Origin: an uncultured virus (IMG/VR IMGVR_UViG_3300048911_000053)
Lineage: Duplodnaviria; Heunggongvirae; Uroviricota; Caudoviricetes
Reading direction: 5' to 3' (one strand)
Length of the DNA: 64,000 bases
Virus record (IMG/VR): IMGVR_UViG_3300048911_000053
The stretch's first letter is position 1, and each line of letters starts with the position of its first letter. Below are positions 5,579 through 64,000 of this stretch, piece after piece. Below the pieces are notes generated by a model. It was not told the DNA's origin, made no database searches, and saw only the letters and a list, made by a program, of their open reading frames with translations. The position numbers and the translations under genes are program-made.

Positions 5579-7030
5579 TTAAGTGATCGTTATCGTAATG
5601 TTACTGGCATCCAGTGTTGGAATCTGACTGAAGGTAGTTGTTATGTTCGAGGTGCCAGAAGGTGATGGAGATGTTCCAGCATGCAATGAATTGACTTGAT
5701 GACCGGCTACTGAGTTGATAGGTGAATAGAGTCTTGAAAAGATAACATCACTACCGATCGACATAGTATCTTTGTTGAAGTTAACCAAAGCAGCTTTAAT
5801 CTGATCAACACCATCTGGAGGAAAGTCTGCATCCGTTGAGATGTTAATGGTGACGTAGTAAACGAGTGGGGTTGGTCTTTGAAAATAAATTGTCTTAGAG
5901 TTTCCAGCAGCATCGGTTATCGTTGTTGAGGATGAACCGTAAGTTCTAATACCGACAGGCTTATTTTTCCAGATAGCCGCACCAATATCTGTTGCAGTGC
6001 CACCACTAATCAGAGCCATAAAACTATGTGCAGGAATACCATTACCGTCAGTCGTATCCGTTTCATTAGAAAGGATGATTACTTCTTCGACACCGACGAT
6101 ATCTTTTAAATCAGAATATAATGCGTCCCCGATGTTTCCACCACGGATGTATTTGGCATTCTTAAAGCGGAGCCTTAACTCCTCATCTGTTTCAGCATTT
6201 CGGCCAGTTGTTGCTGACGTATAGTTAACAACACCGTCCCAACCAAGAATAGGTGTGGCAATCGTATCAATTGTATTTGGGCCTTGATCGAGTGGACCTG
6301 TTTCGGTTGCAGTGCATAAACAATACTTCGTTGACTTAACTGTACTTAGTGATCCAGTTAATACGACCGTCAAAGGCGAAAAGCTATTCAGAGTCGTTAC
6401 TGTCAGGAATGTATTATCAATAGTTGCTGTTGTTACGAGACTTGAAGCGTTTGCATCAATCTGCGCTTTTAATCCATTCAGGATTTCTATTAACGTAGCT
6501 GATGAATCTGAAGTGTATGATGAGGTGATAGTTCTTATCCCATCAGAAATTTGGACACTATATGTAGAAGCATTCGATACAGTGGTTATTGCTACTGTAA
6601 AACTTGAAACGTTAGTATTATTCAGTGTCACAGCTATATCCGTTGTGAACTGAACACCAGTGAAACTTGATTTAACTGTAGAGCCTTGTGGGATCGTTGT
6701 ATTGTAATCTCCAGACAAGAAGACATAAGCTTGCGTTGGAGAGGCTGTGAAACGTTGAAGGCCCCCAAGGAATACTTGATTATCTAAAGCAATGCCAGAA
6801 GCTGAATTAGGATCATAAGCCATCCATACTTCTTGAAGCTGTTCCCATAGCTCAGTAAGTGGCGCTGATTGCAGACCGATCAATCTTCCTAAGATGCTGC
6901 CGGGAGTTGTATCAACTTTATCACCGGGAGGAACTAAGTCTTGAAAGAGAGCTGTTGCTTCTGAGTTGAGTGAATCAAGTATCTCTGGCAGTCTTTTTAT
7001 CGTTAAACCTTTATCTGTGATTCCTGCCAT
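5579..7030 (-). CDS. Baseplate J-like wedge protein
   Basis: GRNAETDEELRLR, DPNSASGIALD and GIPAHSF motifs. Confidence 0.9.
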   Translation of the reverse strand: MAGITDKGLTIKRLPEILDSLNSEATALFQDLVPPGDKVDTTPGSILGRLIGLQSAPLTELWEQLQEVWMAYDPNSASGIALDNQVFLGGLQRFTASPTQAYVFLSGDYNTTIPQGSTVKSSFTGVQFTTDIAVTLNNTNVSSFTVAITTVSNASTYSVQISDGIRTITSSYTSDSSATLIEILNGLKAQIDANASSLVTTATIDNTFLTVTTLNSFSPLTVVLTGSLSTVKSTKYCLCTATETGPLDQGPNTIDTIATPILGWDGVVNYTSATTGRNAETDEELRLRFKNAKYIRGGNIGDALYSDLKDIVGVEEVIILSNETDTTDGNGIPAHSFMALISGGTATDIGAAIWKNKPVGIRTYGSSSTTITDAAGNSKTIYFQRPTPLVYYVTINISTDADFPPDGVDQIKAALVNFNKDTMSIGSDVIFSRLYSPINSVAGHQVNSLHAGTSPSPSGTSNITTTFSQIPTLDASNITITIT

Positions 7031-39950: not shown

Positions 39951-41096
39951 ATGAGTAGCACATATAAAGTTCCATTAACAACAATCAAGGAAATTAAGCC
40001 CCACGGTAATGCAGACAGACTCGAAATAGTTTATGTGTACGGATGGGAAGTAGTAGCAGCAAAAGGTCAATACAAAATTGGTGATGTTGCATTTTATGTA
40101 CCGATTGATTCGATCTTAGATCAAGGTTTAGAGAATTTTCTGTTTCCTCCTGATTCTAAAATCAAACTCGATAAACATAGAGTGAGACAAATTAAAATCC
40201 GTGGTGTTGCATCACAGGGTATGTTGATTAATCCACAGACGTTGATTGATGCAGGCTTATTTAAAGGTGATCTAATTCTTGAGGATGATTATGCAGAGGT
40301 ATTAGGTATCACTAAATATGACCCTCCTGCACCTAAAGAACATACTGGTACGGGTTTACCAGCACCGAAGAAACGTAAACTAGAAAATCCAGAGTTTAAG
40401 AAGTACGGTGGATTAGATAACTACAAATGGTATCCAGATTTGTTCCAAGAAGGCGAATTGGTAGTCATCGAAGAAAAAATACATGGCTCTCATGTTCGAT
40501 GTGGTATGGCTCCTGTCCAAGTCGATACATGGTGGAAGAAAGTTAAGAAATTCTTTGGCTTCCTCCCAACACATGAATGGGTATATGGATCGAACAACGT
40601 TCAATTGCAGACTAAGGCAAAGAATAAGTTCACTGGATACTACGATACGAATATCTATTGTGAAGTATTGGAGAAGTACAACATTCAAAGCAAGCTCCAA
40701 CCCGGTGAGTATTTACATGGGGAAGTTTATGGCTCAGGTGTTCAGAAAAACTATCACTACGATTGCAGTGAAGGTGAACGCAGGCTTTGTATCTTTGATG
40801 TTCGAGTGACTGATCCAGTGACAGGTGTACAACGTTATCTTGATCCCGATGAACGCTTCCATTGGCTAGGTACGCGAGGTCTTGGGTCACTCGGTGTTCC
40901 AAACTTGTATTGGGGTGAATGGAGAGGTGTTGATCATGCCAAGACACTGACTATAGGTAATTCAGTGATGGCTCCCGGTCAAAAGGTGATGGAAGGCGTC
41001 GTGATTCGTAATGTGGATTACAGCGATGGCCGTAAGATTCTGAAGCTTATTAGTGAAGACTATTTAGCTGATTCTACGAATACAGATCATCATTAA
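39951..41096 (+). CDS. RNA ligase (Rnl2/DRB0094-like with N-terminal OB domain)
   Basis: PHGNADRLE, KIRGVASQG, EEKIHGS, HGEVYGSGVQ, IFDV, EGVVIR, KLISEDYL. Confidence 0.9.
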   Translation: MSSTYKVPLTTIKEIKPHGNADRLEIVYVYGWEVVAAKGQYKIGDVAFYVPIDSILDQGLENFLFPPDSKIKLDKHRVRQIKIRGVASQGMLINPQTLIDAGLFKGDLILEDDYAEVLGITKYDPPAPKEHTGTGLPAPKKRKLENPEFKKYGGLDNYKWYPDLFQEGELVVIEEKIHGSHVRCGMAPVQVDTWWKKVKKFFGFLPTHEWVYGSNNVQLQTKAKNKFTGYYDTNIYCEVLEKYNIQSKLQPGEYLHGEVYGSGVQKNYHYDCSEGERRLCIFDVRVTDPVTGVQRYLDPDERFHWLGTRGLGSLGVPNLYWGEWRGVDHAKTLTIGNSVMAPGQKVMEGVVIRNVDYSDGRKILKLISEDYLADSTNTDHH

Positions 41097-42406: not shown

Positions 42407-42678
42407 GTTTAGGAATGATCTATTTGATTGGCTTGGTTGTCACATGGATAGGTGCTGTTGCTTATGCGTATTTCTTGAATGAAGAAAAAATTAAAGGTAA
42501 ATGTAAAAGATTTAACAAAACTTCCGATGATTATGAACACTCTGTGGAGCATTACTTCATTGCAACTCTTTACGGAGTTATCTGGCCTACAAGTGTTCCT
42601 ATTACTGCCATTATTCTGGTGGGGTTAGTTTTAGGAAAAGAAATAGTGAAATATTTTGATAAGAAGGAAATAAAATAA
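42403..42678 (+). CDS. Small two-TM membrane protein
   Basis: Two hydrophobic stretches, IWP motif. Confidence 0.6.
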   Translation: MSLGMIYLIGLVVTWIGAVAYAYFLNEEKIKGKCKRFNKTSDDYEHSVEHYFIATLYGVIWPTSVPITAIILVGLVLGKEIVKYFDKKEIK

Positions 42679-43496
42679 TGGGCTTCATCAGAGTTAATGG
42701 GAGAACAGTTGATAGCTTCACATTCCCTGGCGGTGAGCTACAGATTAATATCGGAAACCTGTTTGATGAGCATGTAATTGTCGATGCTTGTATTCAGAAC
42801 TCAGATGATATTATGAAGCTCATCCTCGTAACTGAAGCTGTTTCACAAACGGGGTATACAAAAGAAAGATATTTGAATCTCCATTATGTTCCGTATGCAC
42901 GACAAGATAGGAGATGCAATGAAGGTGAAGCGCATAGCTTGCGTGCATTCGCTGAGCTTATAAATATTTTAGATTATGATTGTGTCCATGTCAGTGATCC
43001 ACATAGCGATGTTGTTGAAGCACTGATTGATAATGTGCATGTAATTCATCAAGAAGATTTGGTAACACAAATCGTGCCGAAGGGTGATTACTTCGTTGTA
43101 AGTCCAGATGGTGGAGCACTGAAGAAGATTTATAAAGTGGCTAAGGCTCTTGATGCAGCAGCCATCGTTAAAGCGGACAAGGTTAGGGATATTACAACAG
43201 GAGCAATTACAGCAACTAATATTTCTATTCCATCACTCTACGCTCAAACAGGTAAGACTTTTCTAGTGGTAGATGATATTTGTGATGGAGGTAGAACGTT
43301 TGTTGAATTAGGAAAGGAGATGCTATGTAACGGTGTGGAGAGGGACCAACTAGAGCTGTATGTAACGCACGGTATCTTTAGTAAAGGCTTTGATGAGTTG
43401 TTGCAGTATTACAGTAAAATTTATACGACGAATTCTTTTCGTCAGGACATTAACCAAGAAGGTGTAGAAGTTTTGGACGTGTGGGAAATCAAATGA
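42678..43496 (+). CDS. Ribose-phosphate pyrophosphokinase-like protein (Prs/Adps-like)
   Basis: FPGGE, YVPYARQDR, DPHSDV, SPDGGA, VVDDICDGGRTF, YVTHGIFSKG. Confidence 0.9.
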   Translation: MGFIRVNGRTVDSFTFPGGELQINIGNLFDEHVIVDACIQNSDDIMKLILVTEAVSQTGYTKERYLNLHYVPYARQDRRCNEGEAHSLRAFAELINILDYDCVHVSDPHSDVVEALIDNVHVIHQEDLVTQIVPKGDYFVVSPDGGALKKIYKVAKALDAAAIVKADKVRDITTGAITATNISIPSLYAQTGKTFLVVDDICDGGRTFVELGKEMLCNGVERDQLELYVTHGIFSKGFDELLQYYSKIYTTNSFRQDINQEGVEVLDVWEIK

Positions 43497-43717
43497 AAGT
43501 AGAGTTAGAAGGAATAAAACCAACTTTTCGGCCGGTGAAATTGATCATCTCGATCGATAACGAGAATGAACTCAGAGAGTTATGGCATCGCTTTAATTTA
43601 CCCAGTAGGATCTTTGTGAATGAGGGGGTAGTTGATCTTCCAAATTCATGTGATTCTTATGGAGTTTGGAGAGTTCTTAATAATTTAGCAATCGAAACAG
43701 GGGTACGAGTGAAGTGA
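43495..43717 (+). CDS. Hypothetical protein (start approximate)
   Basis: KVELEGIKPTFRPVKLIISIDNENELRELW, between the two NAD genes. Confidence 0.5.
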
Positions 43718-45321
43718 ATTTAAATGCATTAACAATTATCGATTTTTATAAAGCAGATCATCGTCGTCAGTATCCAGAAGGTACTGAATTGGTTTACTCC
43801 AATTTCACACCTCGTAGTGGAAGACTTGCACCTGTATTGAAAGATCGTTGGGATGGGAAAGTAGTTGTATTCGGTATTCAGTATCTCTGTGTGCATTACC
43901 TGATCGAGGTATTTGATGAGACTTTCTTTTTGCTACCCAAAGAAACTGTTGTTCGTCAGTACAAACGTCGAATGGATACAGCTCTTGGTCAAGATGCAGT
44001 GTCAGTAGATCACATCGAAGCTCTACATGATCTTGGATACCTGCCTATTGAGATTAAAGCACTTCCTGAAGGCTCAGTAGTCCCGATGAAGGTTCCTGTA
44101 CTTACAATCAAGAATACACTTCCTGAATTCTTTTGGATTGTGAATTATCTGGAGACTTTGCTGAGTAATACTTTATGGCATCCGATGACTGTTGCAACGA
44201 TTGCTCGTGAATACAAACGTATGCTGATGGATTATGCAGAAACCACTGGAGCATCGAAGGATTTTGTTCCATTCCAAGCACATGATTTTAGCTATCGCGG
44301 AGTAGAAAATCCGTATGCTGCTGCTAGTGCAATGGGTCACCTGTTGTCATTCGTAGGTACTGATACTGTCGCTGCTATTGATGCTGCTGAAGACTACTAC
44401 GGAGCTGATGCTGAAAAAGAACTAATTGGTTGTAGCGTACCTGCTACTGAACACAGTGTTATGTGTATGGGTGGACAAGAAGATGAGATCGGTACTTTTA
44501 AGCGGTTGGTTACTGAGTTGTATCCTCGTGGTATTGTTTCCATCGTTTCTGACACTTGGGATTTCTGGCGTGTTGTTACTGAGTATGTTGATATTCTCAA
44601 ACCAGAGATTATGGCTCGTGAAGGGAAGGTGGTAATCCGTCCTGATAGTGGTGATCCGGTTAAGATTGTTTGCGGGTATCGCGCATATGAGCACAACGGG
44701 CCAGAACATCTTGGAGACATCCTAGGCCGATTCGATACCATCAACGCAGAAGTAATTAAGTGGCGTGGGAAATGGTATGAAATTAAACAAGATTTGACTT
44801 TCAACGAAACTAATCTGACTGACTCTGAAGTTAAAGGCGCAATCCAATGCTTATGGGATGTCTTTGGTGGCACTATCAACGACAAGGGCTTCAAGGAGCT
44901 TGATCCACACATTGGCCTCATCTATGGCGATAGCATCACTCTGGAGCGTGCTCAAACGATTCTGGAAGGATTGAAGGCTAAAGGCTTTGCATCGAGTAAT
45001 GTTGTATTTGGTGTTGGCAGCTTCACGTATCAACACGTCACTCGTGACAGCTTTGGTTTTGCAATGAAAGCAACCTATGGTGTTGTAGATGGTGTAGGAA
45101 GAGAAATCTTCAAAGACCCAATTACTGACAGCGGCACTAAGAAATCAGCTAAAGGGTTACTTCGTATTGATCTAGATGATAATGGTGAATACGTTCTGAA
45201 AGATCAGTGTGATTGGATGACTGAGGAAGGTGGACAACTGGAGACTGTATTCAAAGATGGCGATCTGGTAAAAACAACGACACTGGCTGAGATTCGTCAA
45301 CGAGTAGAAGAGGGGTTGTAA
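43714..45321 (+). CDS. Nicotinamide phosphoribosyltransferase-like protein (Nampt/Namat-like)
   Basis: DFYKADH, YSNFTPR, HDFSYRG, SVPATEHSVM, SIVSDTWD, VIRPDSGDP, IYGDSIT, KDPITDSGTKKSAKG. Confidence 0.93.
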   Translation: MNLNALTIIDFYKADHRRQYPEGTELVYSNFTPRSGRLAPVLKDRWDGKVVVFGIQYLCVHYLIEVFDETFFLLPKETVVRQYKRRMDTALGQDAVSVDHIEALHDLGYLPIEIKALPEGSVVPMKVPVLTIKNTLPEFFWIVNYLETLLSNTLWHPMTVATIAREYKRMLMDYAETTGASKDFVPFQAHDFSYRGVENPYAAASAMGHLLSFVGTDTVAAIDAAEDYYGADAEKELIGCSVPATEHSVMCMGGQEDEIGTFKRLVTELYPRGIVSIVSDTWDFWRVVTEYVDILKPEIMAREGKVVIRPDSGDPVKIVCGYRAYEHNGPEHLGDILGRFDTINAEVIKWRGKWYEIKQDLTFNETNLTDSEVKGAIQCLWDVFGGTINDKGFKELDPHIGLIYGDSITLERAQTILEGLKAKGFASSNVVFGVGSFTYQHVTRDSFGFAMKATYGVVDGVGREIFKDPITDSGTKKSAKGLLRIDLDDNGEYVLKDQCDWMTEEGGQLETVFKDGDLVKTTTLAEIRQRVEEGL

Positions 45322-51607: not shown

Positions 51608-52654
51608 TTACCTGTAAAAACGCAGCCTTTCCTTGTATGCATTGAGAATGAGTTGTTCAACCAACAAAGGATCAACCTTATCAGGGAATTCTGAATTTTC
51701 AGCCAGTCCTTCAACCTCCTTGATAATTTCATCGAGTAATTCACTCACCTCAGAAAATGGCCTTTCCCCACGTTTAACACTCAGTAAAAAGTCAGCATTG
51801 CCTAATGGGTATTTCAAATCACCAATCACGTAGATTTGTTTGAGTTGATAGGCTGCTCTTAGGGCATGACTCATTGCTTTCCAGTCAACCCCTTCGTTCT
51901 GCATCGCCAAACGAGCGCGCTCGCCGTACTCGTTCCATTTGGCTGTGAGGAGGCGTTTGAATTCTTCAATTCGCATAGTGGGTTGATAGAGCGATCCAAG
52001 AACAGAGTAATACTCCATCTCAGGACGCCTCACCATAAAGCAATGTTCATTGATGGGGAGATTATTCCATTCGATCGATAGATATCTATCAACAGGCTTT
52101 CCATCAATTAAGGCCCCGCCAAAACCGTGGGAAGGAACAGAATGGATAAATTCATAAGTTGTACGGAGAGCGGCTAGACGACTTCCCTTGACTCCGTATT
52201 TATTGGCTTGCTTTTTACAATACCCTAGAAATGCTTTCATGTTCTTTGTATAGAATTCATTCCGTTTAGATCGAATCAAAAGCCACGGAAGATCACCATA
52301 CAAATAAGCATGAGTTACATCATTTGAATGGATCATATCCATTGCAATGGTTTCACCTTCAGATAGCATATGCATAAATTTCTGGATGCTATAAATAGTG
52401 ATTTCAAGATCATTTGCCTTGTTCTTCTCATCTTTACTCTTGACAGGGGCAAATGAGTATTGATCCTTGGCTTTCCCCAGTAACATATTGTTAATGCTCG
52501 GTATATAGATACCTTTAACGTCAATGTCTGAATCAATTGTATTGGTTCCATACAGATAAGAGCCGTGGAGGGTGACAAACATTAGCTTGTCTTGTGGGGC
52601 GGCCTCTCTTTGGAAAAAGTCAATAGTTTCTTGCAGTATTCTCAGCTTGTCCAC
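51608..52654 (-). CDS. Pol-beta superfamily nucleotidyltransferase (T4 NrdC.11/RlaP-like)
   Basis: HGSYLYGTNTIDSDIDVKGIYIP, GYCKKQANKYGVKGSRL, DWKAMSHALR, LLSVKRG. GTG start chosen by RBS. Confidence 0.85.
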   Translation of the reverse strand: MDKLRILQETIDFFQREAAPQDKLMFVTLHGSYLYGTNTIDSDIDVKGIYIPSINNMLLGKAKDQYSFAPVKSKDEKNKANDLEITIYSIQKFMHMLSEGETIAMDMIHSNDVTHAYLYGDLPWLLIRSKRNEFYTKNMKAFLGYCKKQANKYGVKGSRLAALRTTYEFIHSVPSHGFGGALIDGKPVDRYLSIEWNNLPINEHCFMVRRPEMEYYSVLGSLYQPTMRIEEFKRLLTAKWNEYGERARLAMQNEGVDWKAMSHALRAAYQLKQIYVIGDLKYPLGNADFLLSVKRGERPFSEVSELLDEIIKEVEGLAENSEFPDKVDPLLVEQLILNAYKERLRFYR

Positions 52655-52809
52655 TTCTCTTCCTTTATATAGATAAATAATGCTCACTAAAGTATAATAA
52701 ATAAATGTGAAAGTCAACTACTAAAATTAATAAATTAAGTGTTGCACAGTATAATAAATAAGTATAATCTGTTTCTAAGATTAAAGTTAACAGAGGATGA
52801 GAAAACAAA

Positions 52810-58408: not shown

Positions 58409-58432
58409 AAGGGAGGCTTTGCCTCCCTGTTT
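58407..58432. terminator. Bidirectional terminator between the convergent xis-like and int genes
   Basis: AAAAGGGAGGC-TTT-GCCTCCCTGTTT. Confidence 0.8.
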
Positions 58433-59558
58433 ACATTGTAATCTCAATATCCTTTAACCTTTCAGCTGTCTTCTTTGCATTCTGTACGTGGTACACCTTA
58501 AACATAATCTTAGGGTCTTTCCATCCTCCACTGGTCATTAGTTCCTGCATATCCATATGCTCAGAGAGCATTGATTGAGATGTACGTCTACTATCGTGGA
58601 ACGTTTTTCCTTTCAACCCAATCCGATCTCTATACACTCGAAATAATGTATCTTTTGATGAAGGGGTTAGATTAAAAATAGTTTCCTTATTTCGAGGAAT
58701 ATCTAATGCCAGTTTATAAAGTTCAATAGCATTCTTAACAAGAACAACATGTCGTGCTTCCCCTGTCTTAGATATCTCTTTAGGTATCCATAGGAGTCCT
58801 GCCTCCAAATCAACATTGTTTGGTGTATTAAGTAATATCTCCTGAGATCGTTGCATAGTACAAAGACCAATCTTAAAAGCTAAAGCAACTTCTTGAATTC
58901 GTTTTTGAGGAACAGTTCCATCAACATAACTGAGTTCTTTACAGAGCAAATCGACCTCTTCCTTTGTCCACACACTATCACGAGGAGGACTATCATCGGG
59001 CTTAGGTACAACACCTTTAAGTGGATGACGTTTTATCCAACGCCAACCCATCGGCATAGCTCTGGTAAATATGCTAGAAAGGAGTGTATGGTACTTTCGG
59101 ATACTGGCATCTTTGATCTGTCTCTTACCAAAGCGGCGATCATCAATCCAGTCAAAGAATGGGCTGTACTCGTCTGAGTCAAGTGGGAGGTCGGCGTAGT
59201 ATTCCAATTCACTCAACAACCAATCACCCATTTTCTTGCCACGCATCATCTCATTACGGAGGTATTCAATCTCTCCGACACGTTTACGATAGTTGCGTTT
59301 GGTGCGGTCAAGTTCCTTCTCAATGTACGCATCCATTAAGTCACCCAGCGTTCGAGTGCTTCTAATGGGTACTGTTGGATTCTTTGGAGAACCGTGTTTA
59401 CCATCAAGAATTTCTTGTTCAAGAATTGCAGCAGCACGCTCAGCGGCTTTCGATGTATCTCGGGTGACAGATTTGCGGATACCGTTGACGTAGACCTCGC
59501 AGCGATAGCTGACGATCTTGCCAAGTCGGTTAGTAATTTCTCGTGGTTTAGATGCCAT
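58431..59558 (-). CDS. int: Tyrosine recombinase/phage integrase
   Basis: Catalytic set TMQRSQEI (R), SKTGEAR (K), FHDSRR (HxxR), GGWKD (W), KVYH (Y); N-terminal arm-binding-like domain. Confidence 0.9.
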   Translation of the reverse strand: MASKPREITNRLGKIVSYRCEVYVNGIRKSVTRDTSKAAERAAAILEQEILDGKHGSPKNPTVPIRSTRTLGDLMDAYIEKELDRTKRNYRKRVGEIEYLRNEMMRGKKMGDWLLSELEYYADLPLDSDEYSPFFDWIDDRRFGKRQIKDASIRKYHTLLSSIFTRAMPMGWRWIKRHPLKGVVPKPDDSPPRDSVWTKEEVDLLCKELSYVDGTVPQKRIQEVALAFKIGLCTMQRSQEILLNTPNNVDLEAGLLWIPKEISKTGEARHVVLVKNAIELYKLALDIPRNKETIFNLTPSSKDTLFRVYRDRIGLKGKTFHDSRRTSQSMLSEHMDMQELMTSGGWKDPKIMFKVYHVQNAKKTAERLKDIEITM

Positions 59559-59581
59559 AACAAGTCCTCTCAGAGACTGAA

Positions 59582-59820
59582 GCGTAATTTGAGGCGTAAT
59601 TACGTAGTTAAAGATGGGTTTATTATACGTTAAATTGTATTTAAAGCAATAAGAGTCTATAAACAGCCTTTACAACTTATTGCCTTAAAATCAACAACTT
59701 ACGTACAATTTACCCTCTCTGAGAGAGTTTGTTACAAGCTAAAATGGCTCCGCCTGCTGGGGCCATACGTCTCAGAGAATCAACAACATACGTTATTAAA
59801 GCGTAATTTAGGCGTAATTT
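59582..59820. other. Intact attP: tRNA 3'-end core flanked by arm-type repeats and IHF sites
   Basis: Core 59745-59761 reads CCCAGCAGGCGGAGCCA on the minus strand. Paired GCGTAATT repeats at 59582/59594 and 59801/59812. AATCAACAACTTA (59689) matches IHF WATCAANNNNTTR; near-copy at 59778. Confidence 0.8.
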
Positions 59821-59942
59821 TATGTCAAGGGTCTTGAGAGGAGGTCTTGTAAAAGATTTATTTTAAATTAAGTACAACGAAGACTTTATTTATCGTAGGC
59901 TGTCGTCCAGAATGTGAACTGGGTCACATATGGGAGCTGTCG

Positions 59943-60580: not shown

Positions 60581-60657
60581 GGGCCAGTAGCTTAGCCGGT
60601 CAAAGCAATCCGCTCATAACGGATAGATAGTGAGTTCGAGTCTCACATGGCCCACCA
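60581..60657 (+). tRNA. tRNA-CAT (Ile2 or elongator Met)
   Basis: ATCCG-CTCATAA-CGGAT arm, GGGCCA/TGGCCC acceptor, CCA. Confidence 0.9.
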
Positions 60658-60665
60658 ATCAAACT

Positions 60666-60742
60666 CTCCCTGTAGCTCAGTAGGACAGAGCAGCGAGCTT
60701 CTACCTCGTAGGTCGGCGGTTCGATTCCGTCCGGGGAGGCCA
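60666..60742 (+). tRNA. tRNA-Arg(TCT)
   Basis: GCGAG-CTTCTAC-CTCGT arm, A after GG in the D-loop, CCA. Confidence 0.9.
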
Positions 60743-61233: not shown

Positions 61234-61692
61234 ATGAACGTTAAGCACATGAAGATGATGGCTGACTTGCTGCGAGAGATTGCTGCTGACAAGAAGCTGA
61301 AGAAGCATTTTAACTTGAGAAGTTGGGTAGGTCGCCCTGGAGTTTTAATGGGGAGGACAGAACTTGTAAAGAAACCAAAAGATATGAAAGTACTGGTTTC
61401 TGAATGTGGGACTACTGCATGTGCTTGTGGGTATGCAGGACTGACTCTAGCTTTCATTAAGAAAGGTTTTCAATACAATTCCATAAACCATGACATCACT
61501 TACACAACCGAAGATAATATATTCTTCGCTTGGGAAGCAGTAAAGAAGTTCTTTGACCTAAGCTCGGATATGGCGGAATGGTTATTCTTATATGATACCT
61601 ATTTCGATGCATTCAAAAATGAACACGATCCTAAACCATCCGATGTCCTTCGTCGTGTAGAGTTTTTAATAGAAGAATACACAGCCCGGTAA
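61234..61692 (+). CDS. Hypothetical phage protein (CGTTACACG motif)
   Basis: AGGAG RBS; promoter-like TTGCAG..TATTAT upstream. Confidence 0.7.
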   Translation: MNVKHMKMMADLLREIAADKKLKKHFNLRSWVGRPGVLMGRTELVKKPKDMKVLVSECGTTACACGYAGLTLAFIKKGFQYNSINHDITYTTEDNIFFAWEAVKKFFDLSSDMAEWLFLYDTYFDAFKNEHDPKPSDVLRRVEFLIEEYTAR

Positions 61693-61698
61693 AGATTT

Positions 61699-61758
61699 TG
61701 GAAGCCTTCAGCAAACACTAACATTTGACTTCTAATCAAACCACGTTAAGTGCTTCCA
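61699..61758 (+). ncRNA. Minimal TTCAGCAA-motif RNA displaying an anticodon stem-loop (TCT)
   Basis: TGGAAGC/GCTTCCA closing stem, TTCAGCAAACA, TTTGA-CTTCTAA-TCAAA hairpin. Confidence 0.7.
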
Positions 61759-61779
61759 GTTAATTAAGAGGAAAGATCA

Positions 61780-62397
61780 ATGACATTGCTCGAACAAATC
61801 AAAGCAAACTTGGCAGCAGATCGTAAGAGCGCCAACAGAAGTTCAATCAGCATTCATACAGTGATTATTGGCGAATGCGAACGTGTCCATAAAGACCTGA
61901 ACGATGAAGGTGTAATCAGAGTCTTGAAGAAGCTTCTTAAAGATACAAAAGATGCTTTAAGTTACTTCAAGAGTCCTATTGCAGTAGAGGCAGCAGAGTT
62001 TGAGATTAAAGTGATTGAGTCTTATCTTCCTAAACAACTCACTGAGTATGAGATAAAGAATCAAGTTTCAGTTGCTCGTTCTCTCGGTTGTAATGATGTT
62101 GGAGCAATCATGGGTTTCTTTAAGAAGCAACATAGTGGCCGGTACGATGGAGCACTTGTGAGTAAGTATGCAAAAGGCTTCACCCTTATTGAGCTGTTGA
62201 TAGGTACTGCCATAATTGGAATTGTTGGCGTTATCTTTGTTGGTGCAGTCAAAGGAACTCAGGATAACAACCTGACATACGGCATTAATGGTTTTGTGGA
62301 AACACGTTGTATCAGTGGATATCAGTTTACGGTTGGTGAGCGAGGCCATGTTCATCAAATCTATGATGAGAATGGCCGAGGATTGCCTTGTAAGTAA
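61780..62397 (+). CDS. GatB/YqeY-like domain fused in frame to a prepilin-type (type IV pilin N-terminal motif) protein
   Basis: LLEQIKANL...EIKVIESYLPKQLTEYEI...GAIMGFFKKQHSGRYDGALVSK (YqeY), then KG|FTLIELLIGTAIIGIVGVIFV. Confidence 0.8.
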   Translation: MTLLEQIKANLAADRKSANRSSISIHTVIIGECERVHKDLNDEGVIRVLKKLLKDTKDALSYFKSPIAVEAAEFEIKVIESYLPKQLTEYEIKNQVSVARSLGCNDVGAIMGFFKKQHSGRYDGALVSKYAKGFTLIELLIGTAIIGIVGVIFVGAVKGTQDNNLTYGINGFVETRCISGYQFTVGERGHVHQIYDENGRGLPCK

Positions 62398-62672: not shown

Positions 62673-62807
62673 TGCATCCTTACAGCAAACAATCTTCTAT
62701 CCATGTGGAGGACGTAGGGTTGGTTCGAATCCAACCTCCCCGGTCTAGCGGGGAGTAGTGTAGTGGTAGCACGCGTAAAGAGATGGTGGTAATCCACTAA
62801 GGATGCA
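62673..62807 (+). ncRNA. Circularly permuted tRNA-like RNA (anticodon GTG) inside a TACAGCAA-motif closing stem
   Basis: TGCATCCTTA/TAAGGATGCA stem, TCC-ATGTGGA-GGACG, GTTGG-TTCGAAT-CCAAC, CTCCCCG-GTCTAG-CGGGGAG, GTGT-AGTGGTA-GCAC, GCGTA. Confidence 0.85.
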
Positions 62808-62900: not shown

Positions 62901-62910
62901 AGATTATTTT

Positions 62911-63030
62911 TGGATGACTACAGCAAACAAACAGCCTATTAAGCCGTGGGTCGTAGGTTCGAGTCCTGCCTCCGTAACTGTAATCGGTACGGTGTAGCTC
63001 AGTTGGTAGAGCAACGTAAATGTTCATCCA
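62911..63030 (+). ncRNA. Circularly permuted tRNA-like RNA (anticodon ATT) inside a TACAGCAA-motif closing stem
   Basis: TGGATGA/TCATCCA stem, GC-CTATTAA-GCCGT, GTAGG-TTCGAGT-CCTGC, CTCCGTA-11nt-TACGGTG, GCTC-AGTTGGTA-GAGC, AACGTA. Confidence 0.85.
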
Positions 63031-63075
63031 GTTAACCTAAACATAAATTTAAATAGAGAGAAGCAAAGAAGGGAA

Positions 63076-64000
63076 ATGAAGAATTATATTGGTTTAGTAA
63101 ATGATCATTCTGGTTCAATGAGTCATTTGGCAAAAGCAGCAGCAAGTGATTACAACACAAACATCACTGCAATCAAAGATGCAGCAAGTCGTGAGATGTT
63201 GGATACCGTAGTTTCTGTGGTTGGTATTGGCCTCAGTAACAATGGTCATGGTGTGGTACGTCAAGTTCAAATCTCCAATCCGCATGTATTGAAACCTATT
63301 CAATCATGGCCGACTCCCGGTGGTACTCCTTTATGGGATGGTGTTGGTGAAATGATTGAATTGTTTGAATCCTTACCGGATGCAAATTCTCCTGATGTGT
63401 CGTTTCTTGTGATCACGACGACTGATGGTGAGGAGATGCATTCAACTCGATACACACGCTATTCATTGGCTGCGAAGATTCAATCATTGCAACAATCTGG
63501 TCGTTGGACATTTGTGTTCCGCGTACCGAAGGGTAATCGTAATTCCCTGAATGGTCTTGGTGTTCCTATCGATAACATCCAAGAGTGGGAAACAACTGCA
63601 ACGGGTATTGCAAAATCAACCGTAGCAACAACTCAGGCAATGGATAACTACTTCACTACACGTTCTGCTGGTGCTCGTTCATCGAATGCCTTTTATGCAA
63701 ATGCGAGTTCAGTGAATACATCTGCATTGAAAGATATCAGCAGTGATGTTTCGTTATACATCGTAGCGGATAGTCAAATGGGTATGGAGATTCGTGAATT
63801 TATTCTGACGAAACGTATGGAATATTTAAAAGGATCAGCGTTCTACCAATTGACTAAGACTGAAGCACGAGTACAACACGATAAATTGATTATTGTTCGT
63901 GACCGTACCACTGGTGCTTTCTATGCCGGTAAAGCCGCTCGTGGAATGATTGGTTTACCAACAGACCGTAATGCACGTCTACATCCCGATGATCATGGCA
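63076..64000 (+). CDS. von Willebrand factor A (vWA) domain protein, 3' partial
   Basis: Not in the ORF track. MKNYIGLVNDHSGSM (MIDAS DxSxS), GGTPLWDG, TTDGEE; open to the window end. Confidence 0.85.
   Translation, partial: MKNYIGLVNDHSGSMSHLAKAAASDYNTNITAIKDAASREMLDTVVSVVGIGLSNNGHGVVRQVQISNPHVLKPIQSWPTPGGTPLWDGVGEMIELFESLPDANSPDVSFLVITTTDGEEMHSTRYTRYSLAAKIQSLQQSGRWTFVFRVPKGNRNSLNGLGVPIDNIQEWETTATGIAKSTVATTQAMDNYFTTRSAGARSSNAFYANASSVNTSALKDISSDVSLYIVADSQMGMEIREFILTKRMEYLKGSAFYQLTKTEARVQHDKLIIVRDRTTGAFYAGKAARGMIGLPTDRNARLHPDDHG

Follow-up and report, generated by a model that had tools for sequence, protein, structure and literature searches.

Y RNAs combine a terminal stem, a motif adjacent to it on the 5' strand and variable heads, and they come as several RNAs per genome (available part of PMC4201824). 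Within this layout, the Ro60-bound RNA YrlA bears the Ro60 site (GNCGAAN0-1G) on the 5' strand of its terminal stem, and its head mimics a tRNA with a closed acceptor (available parts of PMC4201824 and bioRxiv 10.1101/312249). Ro60 contacts mainly the 5' strand of YrlA, and the phages of that study number 22 (Bacillus phage G, CcrColossus and 20 cluster-C mycobacteriophages; supplementary table S2 and available part of PMC4201824). The Thermus phage phiLo encodes a Ro60 homologue (phiRo60; 9KOP, 9L5Y) with two small RNAs upstream (Yrl1 and Yrl2), and protein and RNAs bind the host PNPase in what was proposed to be a hijack (available part of PMC12135203). In the Felixounavirus Bas63, the Ro60-like gp130 acts against the Ppl defence system; the authors of that work, who named no RNA, suspected Y RNAs to be concealed among the tRNA genes (bioRxiv 10.1101/2024.10.10.617714). 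Here, we analyse M4, a 60-nt element at positions 61699-61758 (+ strand) of a 64,000-nt stretch (the window) of an uncultured Caudoviricetes virus (IMG/VR record IMGVR_UViG_3300048911_000053). Its closest known class is that of the Y RNAs (YrlA/YrlB), and M4 is probably a short, YrlB-type Y-RNA-like partner of a phage Ro60 homologue belonging to the DUF2828 clade.

Anatomy of M4 and evidence for an RNA family

Read along the + strand, M4 has the order TGGAAGC-C-TT-CAGCAAACA-CTAACA-TTTGA-CTTCTAA-TCAAA-CCACGTTAAGT-GCTTCCA and is followed by GTTAAT (Table 1). The closing stem (P1) comprises 7 bp; the minimum free energy (MFE) fold lengthens it to about 10 bp, with one bulged site. An earlier note on this DNA had recognised the stem, the motif and a hairpin of 5 bp and 7 nt, all of which are present as described; it had also placed the motif directly after the stem, an adjacency that holds only roughly, because C61706 and TT separate the two. 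The element occupies the 87-nt gap between the stop codon (61690-61692) of an open reading frame (ORF) of 152 aa and the ATG (61780) of a YqeY-like ORF, starting 6 nt past the former and ending 21 nt ahead of the latter. It is identical in DNA contigs from four runs, which thus offer no natural variants, and a megablast search of the M4 region against the phage collection gave no match.

M4 is not a tRNA gene. Neither ARAGORN nor Rfam calls a tRNA at its position, and of the cloverleaf (acceptor, D, anticodon and T arms) it presents an anticodon-arm-like hairpin only, so that the absence of D, T and acceptor arms asserted in the earlier note is borne out. The normal tRNA-Arg(TCT) that was said to lie about 1 kb upstream is indeed there, 957 nt from M4; its anticodon loop is CUUCUAC, and a tRNA-Met is also called (ARAGORN, Rfam) at 60581, roughly 1 kb upstream of M4. 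Rfam 15 contains no family matching M4 or the constant module described below, and no account of such RNAs was found in the full-text literature, where the coverage of Ro60 and RNA-repair reviews is incomplete.

A pattern scanner was set to find a 7-bp stem followed, after a gap of 2-4 nt, by CAGCAA and, no more than 215 nt away, by the reverse complement of that stem. Applied to 139 loci, it returned 244 matches on the query gene's strand and 69 on the opposite one, against 44 and 34 in shuffled sequences and 42-68 and 29-56 for five control hexamers; the combination of closing stem and CAGCAA, which the earlier note had taken for a family signature, is hence far from equally common in shuffles. 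A G directly follows P1 in 142 of the 212 unique plus-strand matches and in 18 of the 62 minus-strand ones. In the IMG/VR contig L001, which is identical to the end of the window and runs on past it (window position = L001 + 57075), the scanner recovered M4 together with M1 and M2, which lie within the window, and M5 and M6, which lie beyond its end.

We aligned 22 M4-like sequences from other phages (alignment A4, with none from this phage) and built from them alone a covariance model (R2), which is therefore a leave-one-out model with respect to M4. R2 matched M4 at 61695-61764 with 55.2 bits (E = 4.4e-12), over model positions 1-69 of 69 and with 12 of 12 pairs formed. Across both strands of the window it gave just one further match at E <= 10, namely M2 (62907-63036; 33.8 bits, E = 2.6e-6). 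The comparative evidence for the membership of M4 is decisive. Another model, R1, scored M4 at 62.9 bits and produced 102 matches (E <= 1e-3) in 88 sources, all of them co-directional with a DUF2828 gene; its two minus-strand matches belong to one locus (L004) in which the gene fragment is also on the minus strand.

The family consensus consists of a U-rich flank, a stem that starts with R-G and ends with C-Y, a 3-nt linker, C-N-G-C-A-A, a variable head and, on the 3' side, an A-rich strand, the stem, an invariant G and usually UU. All the defining traits (P1 of at least 7 bp, a linker of 2-4 nt, C-N-G-C-A-A, a variable head and a G past P1) are found in M4. Within A4 the C, G, C and A of the motif are invariant (variants being CCGCAA, CTGCAA and CAGCGA), and G directly follows P1 in 22 of 22 rows, with U next in 20. 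The A4 helices are paired in 98.5% of the cells, and all 12 pairs (7 in P1 and 5 in the hairpin) vary on both sides, yielding a covariation score of 0.92 against 0.21 in shuffles and at most 0.16 with the partners slid; these figures overstate independence, because P1 pairing and a visible hairpin were selected for, and while the complete pairing of P1 is circular for that reason, the variation of its sequence is not. G-U and A-C mismatches in P1 (6 and 5, respectively) do not discriminate pairing at the RNA level.

A kink-turn at the junction of stem and CAGCAA was weighed by eye and dropped, because tandem G-A pairs are absent.

Linkage to a gene for a Ro60-like protein

Downstream of M4, L001 encodes a vWA-like protein of 431 aa, an HD_4 hydrolase and a 472-aa protein with Pfam matches to DUF7788 (2e-43) and DUF2828 (2e-25), which has more than 7,800 homologues in the protein collection. 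An AlphaFold (AF2) model of the latter, built from a 30-sequence alignment, reached a predicted local distance difference test score (pLDDT) of 83 and a predicted template modelling score (pTM) of 0.80. When it was compared with the PDB by Foldseek, all 12 of the 12 best matches were Ro60/TROVE proteins aligned over the whole length (E from 3e-8 to 4e-5; template modelling scores 0.39-0.67). They include 9kop and 9l5y (the best ones), 2nvo, 1yvr, 2i91 and 1yvp, and comprise the Ro60 of Thermus phage phiLo, D. radiodurans Rsr, and Xenopus and human Ro60. In a profile search the two top PDB matches were likewise TROVE proteins, at a weak E of 0.11. The PHROGs label of the family is 'RNA-binding protein', and homologues in mycobacteriophages are annotated 'Ro-like RNA binding protein'. 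The full-length structural matches indicate that the phage has a Ro60-like ring protein encoded 3.7 kb downstream of M4, whose DUF2828 and DUF7788 parts correspond to a TROVE-like HEAT ring and a vWA domain.

The RNA family travels with this gene. Since a single-protein search of viral contigs gave 4 loci only, an alignment-based search was needed; it provided 80 DUF2828 loci, 75 of which were kept after near-duplicates were dropped. Of the G-followed scanner matches in these 75 loci, 113 were oriented like the gene and 8 were on the other strand (64 loci having at least one), and with scanner and covariance matches combined, 67 of the 75 had at least one member within 5 kb on the gene strand. 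The R1 matches cluster near the gene (54 of 74 within 500 nt, on either side). Conversely, in five complete genomes that carry the vWA-like gene without DUF7788 there were no R1 matches in about 440 kb, and of five contigs that had R1 matches and no DUF2828 gene within 6 kb, three carry the gene elsewhere and two are just 33-36% complete. Because presence and absence agree, we conclude that the RNA family follows the Ro60-like gene and not the vWA-like gene beside M2. The docking protein postulated in the earlier note is thus plausible and can now be named: by its Pfam and Foldseek matches it would be the Ro60-like DUF2828/DUF7788 protein.

Some known phages display the same association. By tblastn, the DUF2828 protein was found in 711 of 50,697 phage records, the carriers including Felixounaviruses, Listeria P100-like, Staphylococcus, Campylobacter and Vibrio phages, and mycobacteriophages. 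In the Felixounavirus LinBro, an Escherichia phage, four members (Table 1) are interleaved with a tRNA array and either have no annotation or lie under very small 'hypothetical protein' calls. Three members stand in tandem in mycobacteriophage Lolly9, immediately past the 'Ro-like RNA binding protein' gene and ahead of a terminator: one of hairpin type, one tRNA-like (Rfam YrlA, 37.7 bits) and one with the hairpin UUUCA-CUGCUAA-UGAAA, the same trio in a distant lineage. In Listeria phage LP-064 three members lie just upstream of the DUF2828 gene.

A few side observations concern these loci. The coding sequences annotated in LinBro at 5885-5986, 6370-6519 and 6506-6607 overlap RNA elements and are probably spurious gene calls. 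LP-064 carries a full-length match to the ROOL RNA (1471-2022, +; 87.4 bits, gathering score 99.1) situated 640 nt upstream of its three members and the DUF2828 gene. In Citrobacter phage Ci1 a 114-nt 'tRNA-Pseudo/tRNA-OTHER' annotation falls at 5894-6128, an Rfam tRNA match with a long insert covers 5894-6008, 500 nt downstream of the DUF2828 gene, and no CAGCAA member was found at 5894-6128.

A chance hairpin, an intrinsic terminator or a DNA-level repeat (a scar of recombination or of a mobile element), all devoid of RNA function, would agree with the fact that the fold energy of M4 is by itself unremarkable (MFE -11.8 kcal/mol, z = -1.89; 8 of 200 shuffles were equally stable) and that CAGCAAACA with at most one mismatch is unenriched in the window (26 found, 22 expected). 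Exact copies of CAGCAAACA number four in the window, three of them on the + strand inside the 1.3-kb stretch that holds M4 and its siblings. Such an origin is nonetheless already contradicted by the covariation (compensatory changes in all 12 pairs), by the leave-one-out match of R2 and by the strand bias of 113 to 8. Moreover, the sequence past the stem is GTTAATTAAGAGG, with no U tract, the terminator scan is silent at M4, and neither the motif nor the tRNA-like heads are symmetric, both invariably occurring in sense orientation, so that we regard this explanation as hardly credible.

More serious is the alternative of a cis-acting mRNA element, that is, a leader or intergenic structure for the processing, stability or translation of the flanking genes, for instance an operator that lets the Ro60-like protein control its own mRNA and those of its neighbours. 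The tight placement of M4 between two ORFs and the lack of any promoter-like or terminator-like signature of its own (promoter/terminator scan) speak for it, as does the fact that at many loci a member ends 4-30 nt ahead of the DUF2828 start. We consider it improbable even so, given that members occur in tandem (three in Lolly9 before one terminator, three in LP-064), that others are found downstream of the gene and among tRNA genes processed from long transcripts, that complete tRNA-body heads have no obvious role in an mRNA leader, and that the module also occurs inside a tRNA-shaped RNA (see below).

The interpretation of M4 as a Y-RNA-like partner of the Ro60 homologue draws on several correspondences. 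Like the Y RNAs it has a long stem pairing its ends (a 7-bp P1 in which all pairs covary), and it lies on the same strand as a nearby Ro60-like gene. As with YrlB of S. Typhimurium and M. smegmatis and Yrn2 of D. radiodurans (available part of PMC4201824), it is a second, shorter RNA beside a tRNA-like one; unlike these, its family bears CAGCAA instead of GNCGAAN0-1G, its predicted partner belongs to the DUF2828/DUF7788 clade rather than to the Pfam TROVE proteins, and the M4-type loop keeps anticodon-loop positions, a property not reported for YrlB in that source. The phiLo Yrl RNAs similarly have a terminal stem and an internal bulge with a short motif, whereas tRNA-like or anticodon-like heads are not described in the available part of PMC12135203. 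With Bas63 the likeness goes through the Felixounavirus LinBro and its four members past the DUF2828 gene, gp130 being likened by its 'Ro60-like' description; the elements found here are not annotated tRNAs and sit between tRNA genes, partly under 'hypothetical protein' calls. In one relative the motif reads CAGCGAA, as it does in Pseudomonas YrlA, and the string CAGCAA is absent from the five supplementary files (of six) of PMC4201824 that were searched.

Several observations weigh against this interpretation, in addition to the partial circularity of the covariation figures and the leader-like position of many members. M4 lacks the motif of known Y RNAs (GNCGAAN0-1G in bacteria, GGUCCGA in animals), having CAGCAAACA at the equivalent place, as it lacks the CGAA by which the phiLo RNAs were chosen (available part of PMC12135203), and Rfam YrlA (RF02553; gathering score 69 bits) does not match it at E <= 10. 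The YrlA matches of its siblings cover only the tRNA-like part and stay below the gathering score. The identity of the 472-aa protein to the Ro60 structures is 13-16%, which makes it a structural and not a close sequence relative, and the likeness to Ro60 is one of fold, with no Pfam TROVE match; the nearest record (G001) also has none, but it excludes the region. Large phages have many members dispersed among tRNA genes at distances of 10-40 kb from the gene, and in the T4-like phages phi-pp2 and Ci1, which have the gene, no member occurs within 3-4 kb; T4-like phages might use a different RNA. Finally, the argument for protein binding is one of genomic neighbourhood. On balance we still hold that M4 is probably a YrlB-type partner of the Ro60-like protein, and we infer that it is transcribed, processed to a discrete RNA and bound by that protein, and that it may affect host enzymes.

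Exchangeable heads and the anticodon-arm-like hairpin

In M1 and M2 the closing stem and CAGCAAACA are followed by a permuted tRNA body (a V hairpin, a T arm, a loop-closed acceptor stem and a D arm), then by ACGTAAA and the other strand of the stem; ACGTWAA ahead of the P1 3' strand is common to M2 and M4. An Rfam scan at relaxed thresholds matched M2 to YrlA at 62945-63018 (38.2 bits, E = 3.5e-6, model positions 23-87 of 114), a partial match that stays under the gathering score of 69, and M1 locally at 62719-62772 (22.6 bits, E = 0.11). M1, M2 and the Lolly9 copy thereby resemble YrlA (RF02553) in their T arm, loop-closed acceptor and D arm, with a protein-binding stem taking the place of the anticodon stem. 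They differ from it in that the siblings match positions 23-87/89 only, the terminal module being outside the model, and M4 itself is without a tRNA-like body. M5 and M6 flank the HD_4 hydrolase gene, right ahead of the Ro60-like gene; M5 shares the P1 sequence TGGAAGC with M4, and the head of M6 is a GCUA...UAGCGGACAA hairpin.

Metagenomic contigs of ordinary tRNAs align to M2 (62945-63018) with their D-arm and T-arm halves in swapped order, and between these halves they hold an anticodon arm (..CTGTTAA.., of Asn GTT type). Because of the swapped halves, the head of M2 looks like a circularly permuted tRNA-Asn-like gene minus its anticodon arm. The 3' end of the family (C-Y-G-U-U) resembles the 5' half of that Asn-type loop, which may be a coincidence.

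Elsewhere in the family the heads comprise tRNA bodies without an anticodon arm, hairpins with an ATTGG loop, GCTA..TAGCGGACAA hairpins and domains of 150-200 nt, while some short members have AAGCAA-rich unstructured heads; the MFE folds of short, AU-rich members proved too noisy for sorting heads into classes. One locus (L042, 5820-5940, +) encodes a tRNA-shaped RNA in normal, non-permuted order (z = -4.4), which has an acceptor stem of 8 bp ending in ACCA, a T arm and a long V arm; where its anticodon arm would be expected there is instead a P1-like stem with a GUUA cap, and UUACAGCAA comes next. The vWA-like gene begins 60 nt downstream of this RNA, and ARAGORN makes no call at this position. 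The presence of P1 and CAGCAA as an internal module argues that they form a folded recognition module, something beyond a mere signal for processing RNA ends. A scan for T-loop patterns returned mostly ordinary tRNAs that ARAGORN had missed.

The hairpin of M4, UUUGA-CUUCUAA-UCAAA, has the 5-bp stem, 7-nt loop, U33 and purine 37 of an anticodon arm, and its geometry is kept by the homologues, as the earlier note had expected. In the 22 loops of A4 there is C at position 1 in 18, U at position 2 in 21, A at position 6 in all 22 and A at position 7 in 19, and the stem is exactly 5 bp long, the would-be sixth pair being unpaired in 19 of 21 relatives. This conservation of loop and stem is the pattern of an anticodon arm. 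When short members were sampled regardless of their head, a 7-nt loop topped the best hairpin in 16 of 68 (5.0 in shuffles); 13 of these 16 combine U at position 2 with a purine at position 6 (13% in shuffles), and 10 have a pyrimidine at position 1 as well (2.8% in shuffles). The loops found beyond the first training set are CUUGUAA, CUUUUAA (twice), CUCUUAA, CUGCUAA, CUUGAAA (three times), CUGAAAA, CUCGAAA and UUUGUAC.

Two claims of the earlier note need revision in this light. It had assigned the hairpin an Arg(TCT) identity, which is not conserved: the 22 A4 loops have 11 different middle triplets, and the 'anticodons' seen include UCU, UGU, UUU, CGU, CUU, GCU, GUA, UGA and others. The triplet is, however, not fully free to vary, because U prevails at position 34, and U or A at position 36. 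It had also counted the anticodon loop, with closing stem and CAGCAA, as part of the conserved core; stem and motif keep that status, while the loop, found in about a quarter of the short members, does not. A rejected idea concerns the pairing of the loop with nearby sequence: the M4 loop has a perfect 6-nt complement 25 nt upstream, yet family-wide such complements occur in 3 of 23 members against 3.0 expected, and we dismissed them as chance.

The hairpin could also belong to a free-standing anticodon decoy or repair substrate, mimicking the tRNA-Arg(UCU) arm so as to be cut by, or to soak up, a host anticodon nuclease, with the stem and CAGCAA serving another docking protein or a repair enzyme independently of the Ro60-like protein. 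The likeness to a tRNA anticodon stem-loop is extensive (5-bp stem, 7-nt loop, C32, U33, A37 and A38 around a variable triplet, kept in 22 relatives), the excess of U at 2 and purine at 6 goes in the same direction, and the phage has genes for an RNA ligase and for RlaP, a nucleotidyltransferase of the repair type, as LP-064 has one for an RtcB-like ligase 1.3 kb downstream of its DUF2828 gene. M4 differs from a tRNA in having no D, T or acceptor arms and in its stem, UUUGA/UCAAA, which is unlike the anticodon stem of the phage's tRNA-Arg (GCGAG/CUCGU); positions 34 and 36 are biased across the relatives. The 7-nt loop is confined to a minority of the short members, the other heads are unlike anticodon arms, and the constant part tracks the DUF2828 gene, not ligase genes. 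We accordingly give a decoy of this independent kind little chance.

How the preferred Y-RNA-like particle might work can be sketched as follows. M4 RNA would be made within a rightward transcript, between the 152-aa ORF and the YqeY-like gene, and its 5' and 3' ends would pair into the 7-bp stem. The stem, the unpaired C-A-G-C-A-A and the invariant G may form a constant module that docks the Ro60-like protein, by analogy with GNCGAA, for which the same job has been proposed in cellular YrlA RNAs. The apical part would be an exchangeable effector head: in M4 a 5-bp stem and a 7-nt loop with C32/U33/A37/A38 around a variable triplet, in M1 and M2 the remaining tRNA (T arm, capped acceptor and D arm). 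Such a particle could show pieces of tRNA to tRNA-acting enzymes (host-defence nucleases, repair or modification enzymes). Its action would be that of a decoy or, on the model of the Y RNAs that link Ro60 to PNPase, that of a tether.

As a hypothesis, it is appealing that the anticodon-arm heads may serve as decoys or baits. That phages with Ro60-like proteins carry, on a shared docking stem, a modular kit of tRNA-part mimics, some modelled on the tRNA body and others, M4 included, on the anticodon arm alone with differing 'anticodons', and that the latter are specific baits by which the Ro60-like particle blocks, senses or destroys host anticodon nucleases or other tRNA-directed defence enzymes, seems to us a speculative and rather unlikely possibility; if true, it would be a counter-defence principle not described so far, and it could explain why the Ro60-like gp130 of Bas63 counters a defence system.

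The new elements are the clade of the partner protein, the motif, how large the family is, and the likeness of one head class to an anticodon arm. For a DUF2828 protein annotated just as 'RNA-binding protein', with no RNA partner named, candidates are now supplied, and they have a simple signature that current annotation misses or overlays with spurious small ORFs. The Y-RNA concept of a constant docking stem with an exchangeable head would extend to a second protein clade and gain a new kind of head, the anticodon-arm mimic. The role of phage Ro60 proteins and tRNA-like RNAs, and whether they have a tie to tRNA-targeting defence, thereby become testable in laboratory phage-host pairs (a Felixounavirus on E. 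coli K-12, Lolly9 on M. smegmatis).

Feature coordinates and neighbouring genes

Table 1. Coordinates of M4, its siblings and associated features (window positions unless another sequence is named)
Feature	Position	Strand	Basis or remark
Whole M4 with U-rich 5' flank and GUUAAU 3' flank	61695..61764	+	as delimited by the covariance models
P1 5' strand (terminal/closing stem), TGGAAGC	61699..61705	+	sequence; paired in MFE fold
Linker between P1 and motif	C61706 + TT	+	sequence
Conserved 5'-strand motif CAGCAA(ACA) within CAGCAAACA	61709..61717	+	putative docking site of the Ro60-like protein
Head module: 5-bp stem TTTGA/TCAAA and 7-nt loop	61724..61740	+	anticodon-arm-like; C32 U33 UCU A37 A38
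Head part TTTGA	61724-61728	+	
Head part, loop CTTCTAA	61729-61735	+	
Head part TCAAA	61736-61740	+	
P1 3' strand, GCTTCCA	61752..61758	+	sequence, MFE fold, covariation
Invariant G and UU directly past P1	61759..61761	+	alignment A4
M1: 9-bp P1 (GCATCCTTA/TAAGGATGC), CAGCAAACA, tRNA-like body, extra hairpin	62674..62806	+	
M2: P1 TGGATGA/TCATCCA, CAGCAAACA, tRNA-like body with closed acceptor	62911..63030	+	
M5	L001 7359-7422 (window-equivalent 64434-64497, past the window)	same as gene	stem + CAGCAA scan
M6	L001 8118-8175 (window-equivalent 65193-65250, past the window)	same as gene	stem + CAGCAA scan
DUF2828/DUF7788 gene (472 aa)	L001 8399-9817 (3.7 kb downstream of M4, just past the window)	same as M4	Pfam
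Phage tRNA-Arg(TCT) (context, outside the family)	60666..60742	+	ARAGORN; Rfam tRNA 62.6 bits
Felixounavirus LinBro, four members past the DUF2828 gene	LinBro 5770-5836, 5937-5991, 6325-6392, 6412-6537		last with tRNA-like head

The ORF past M4 (61780-62397, +) encodes a YqeY-like domain (PF09424, 5.6e-17; PHROG 'tRNA amidotransferase') and, in the middle of the protein (residues 129-152), a type IV pilin-like N-terminal methylation motif with a hydrophobic stretch, an odd fusion for a tRNA-related domain. The 431-aa protein (from window 63076-63999, +, to L001 7296) has a MIDAS-like DHSGSM motif near its start, belongs to phrog_26613 and has no Pfam match; its homologues sit inside the tRNA gene arrays of many large phages and also occur in the 5 complete genomes without the DUF2828 gene and the RNA family. 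Further upstream, the genes at 39951-41096, 51608-52717 and 42678-45321 encode the RNA ligase (PF09414 with a PHA02142 OB fold), RlaP (a nucleotidyltransferase of a repair pathway) and NAD salvage (NAMPT and PRPP-synthetase-like) functions. The intergenic region 59575-59830, beside an integrase gene (58431-59558, -), contains a number of repeats that include GCGTAATT, along with recurrent TCTCAGAG words.

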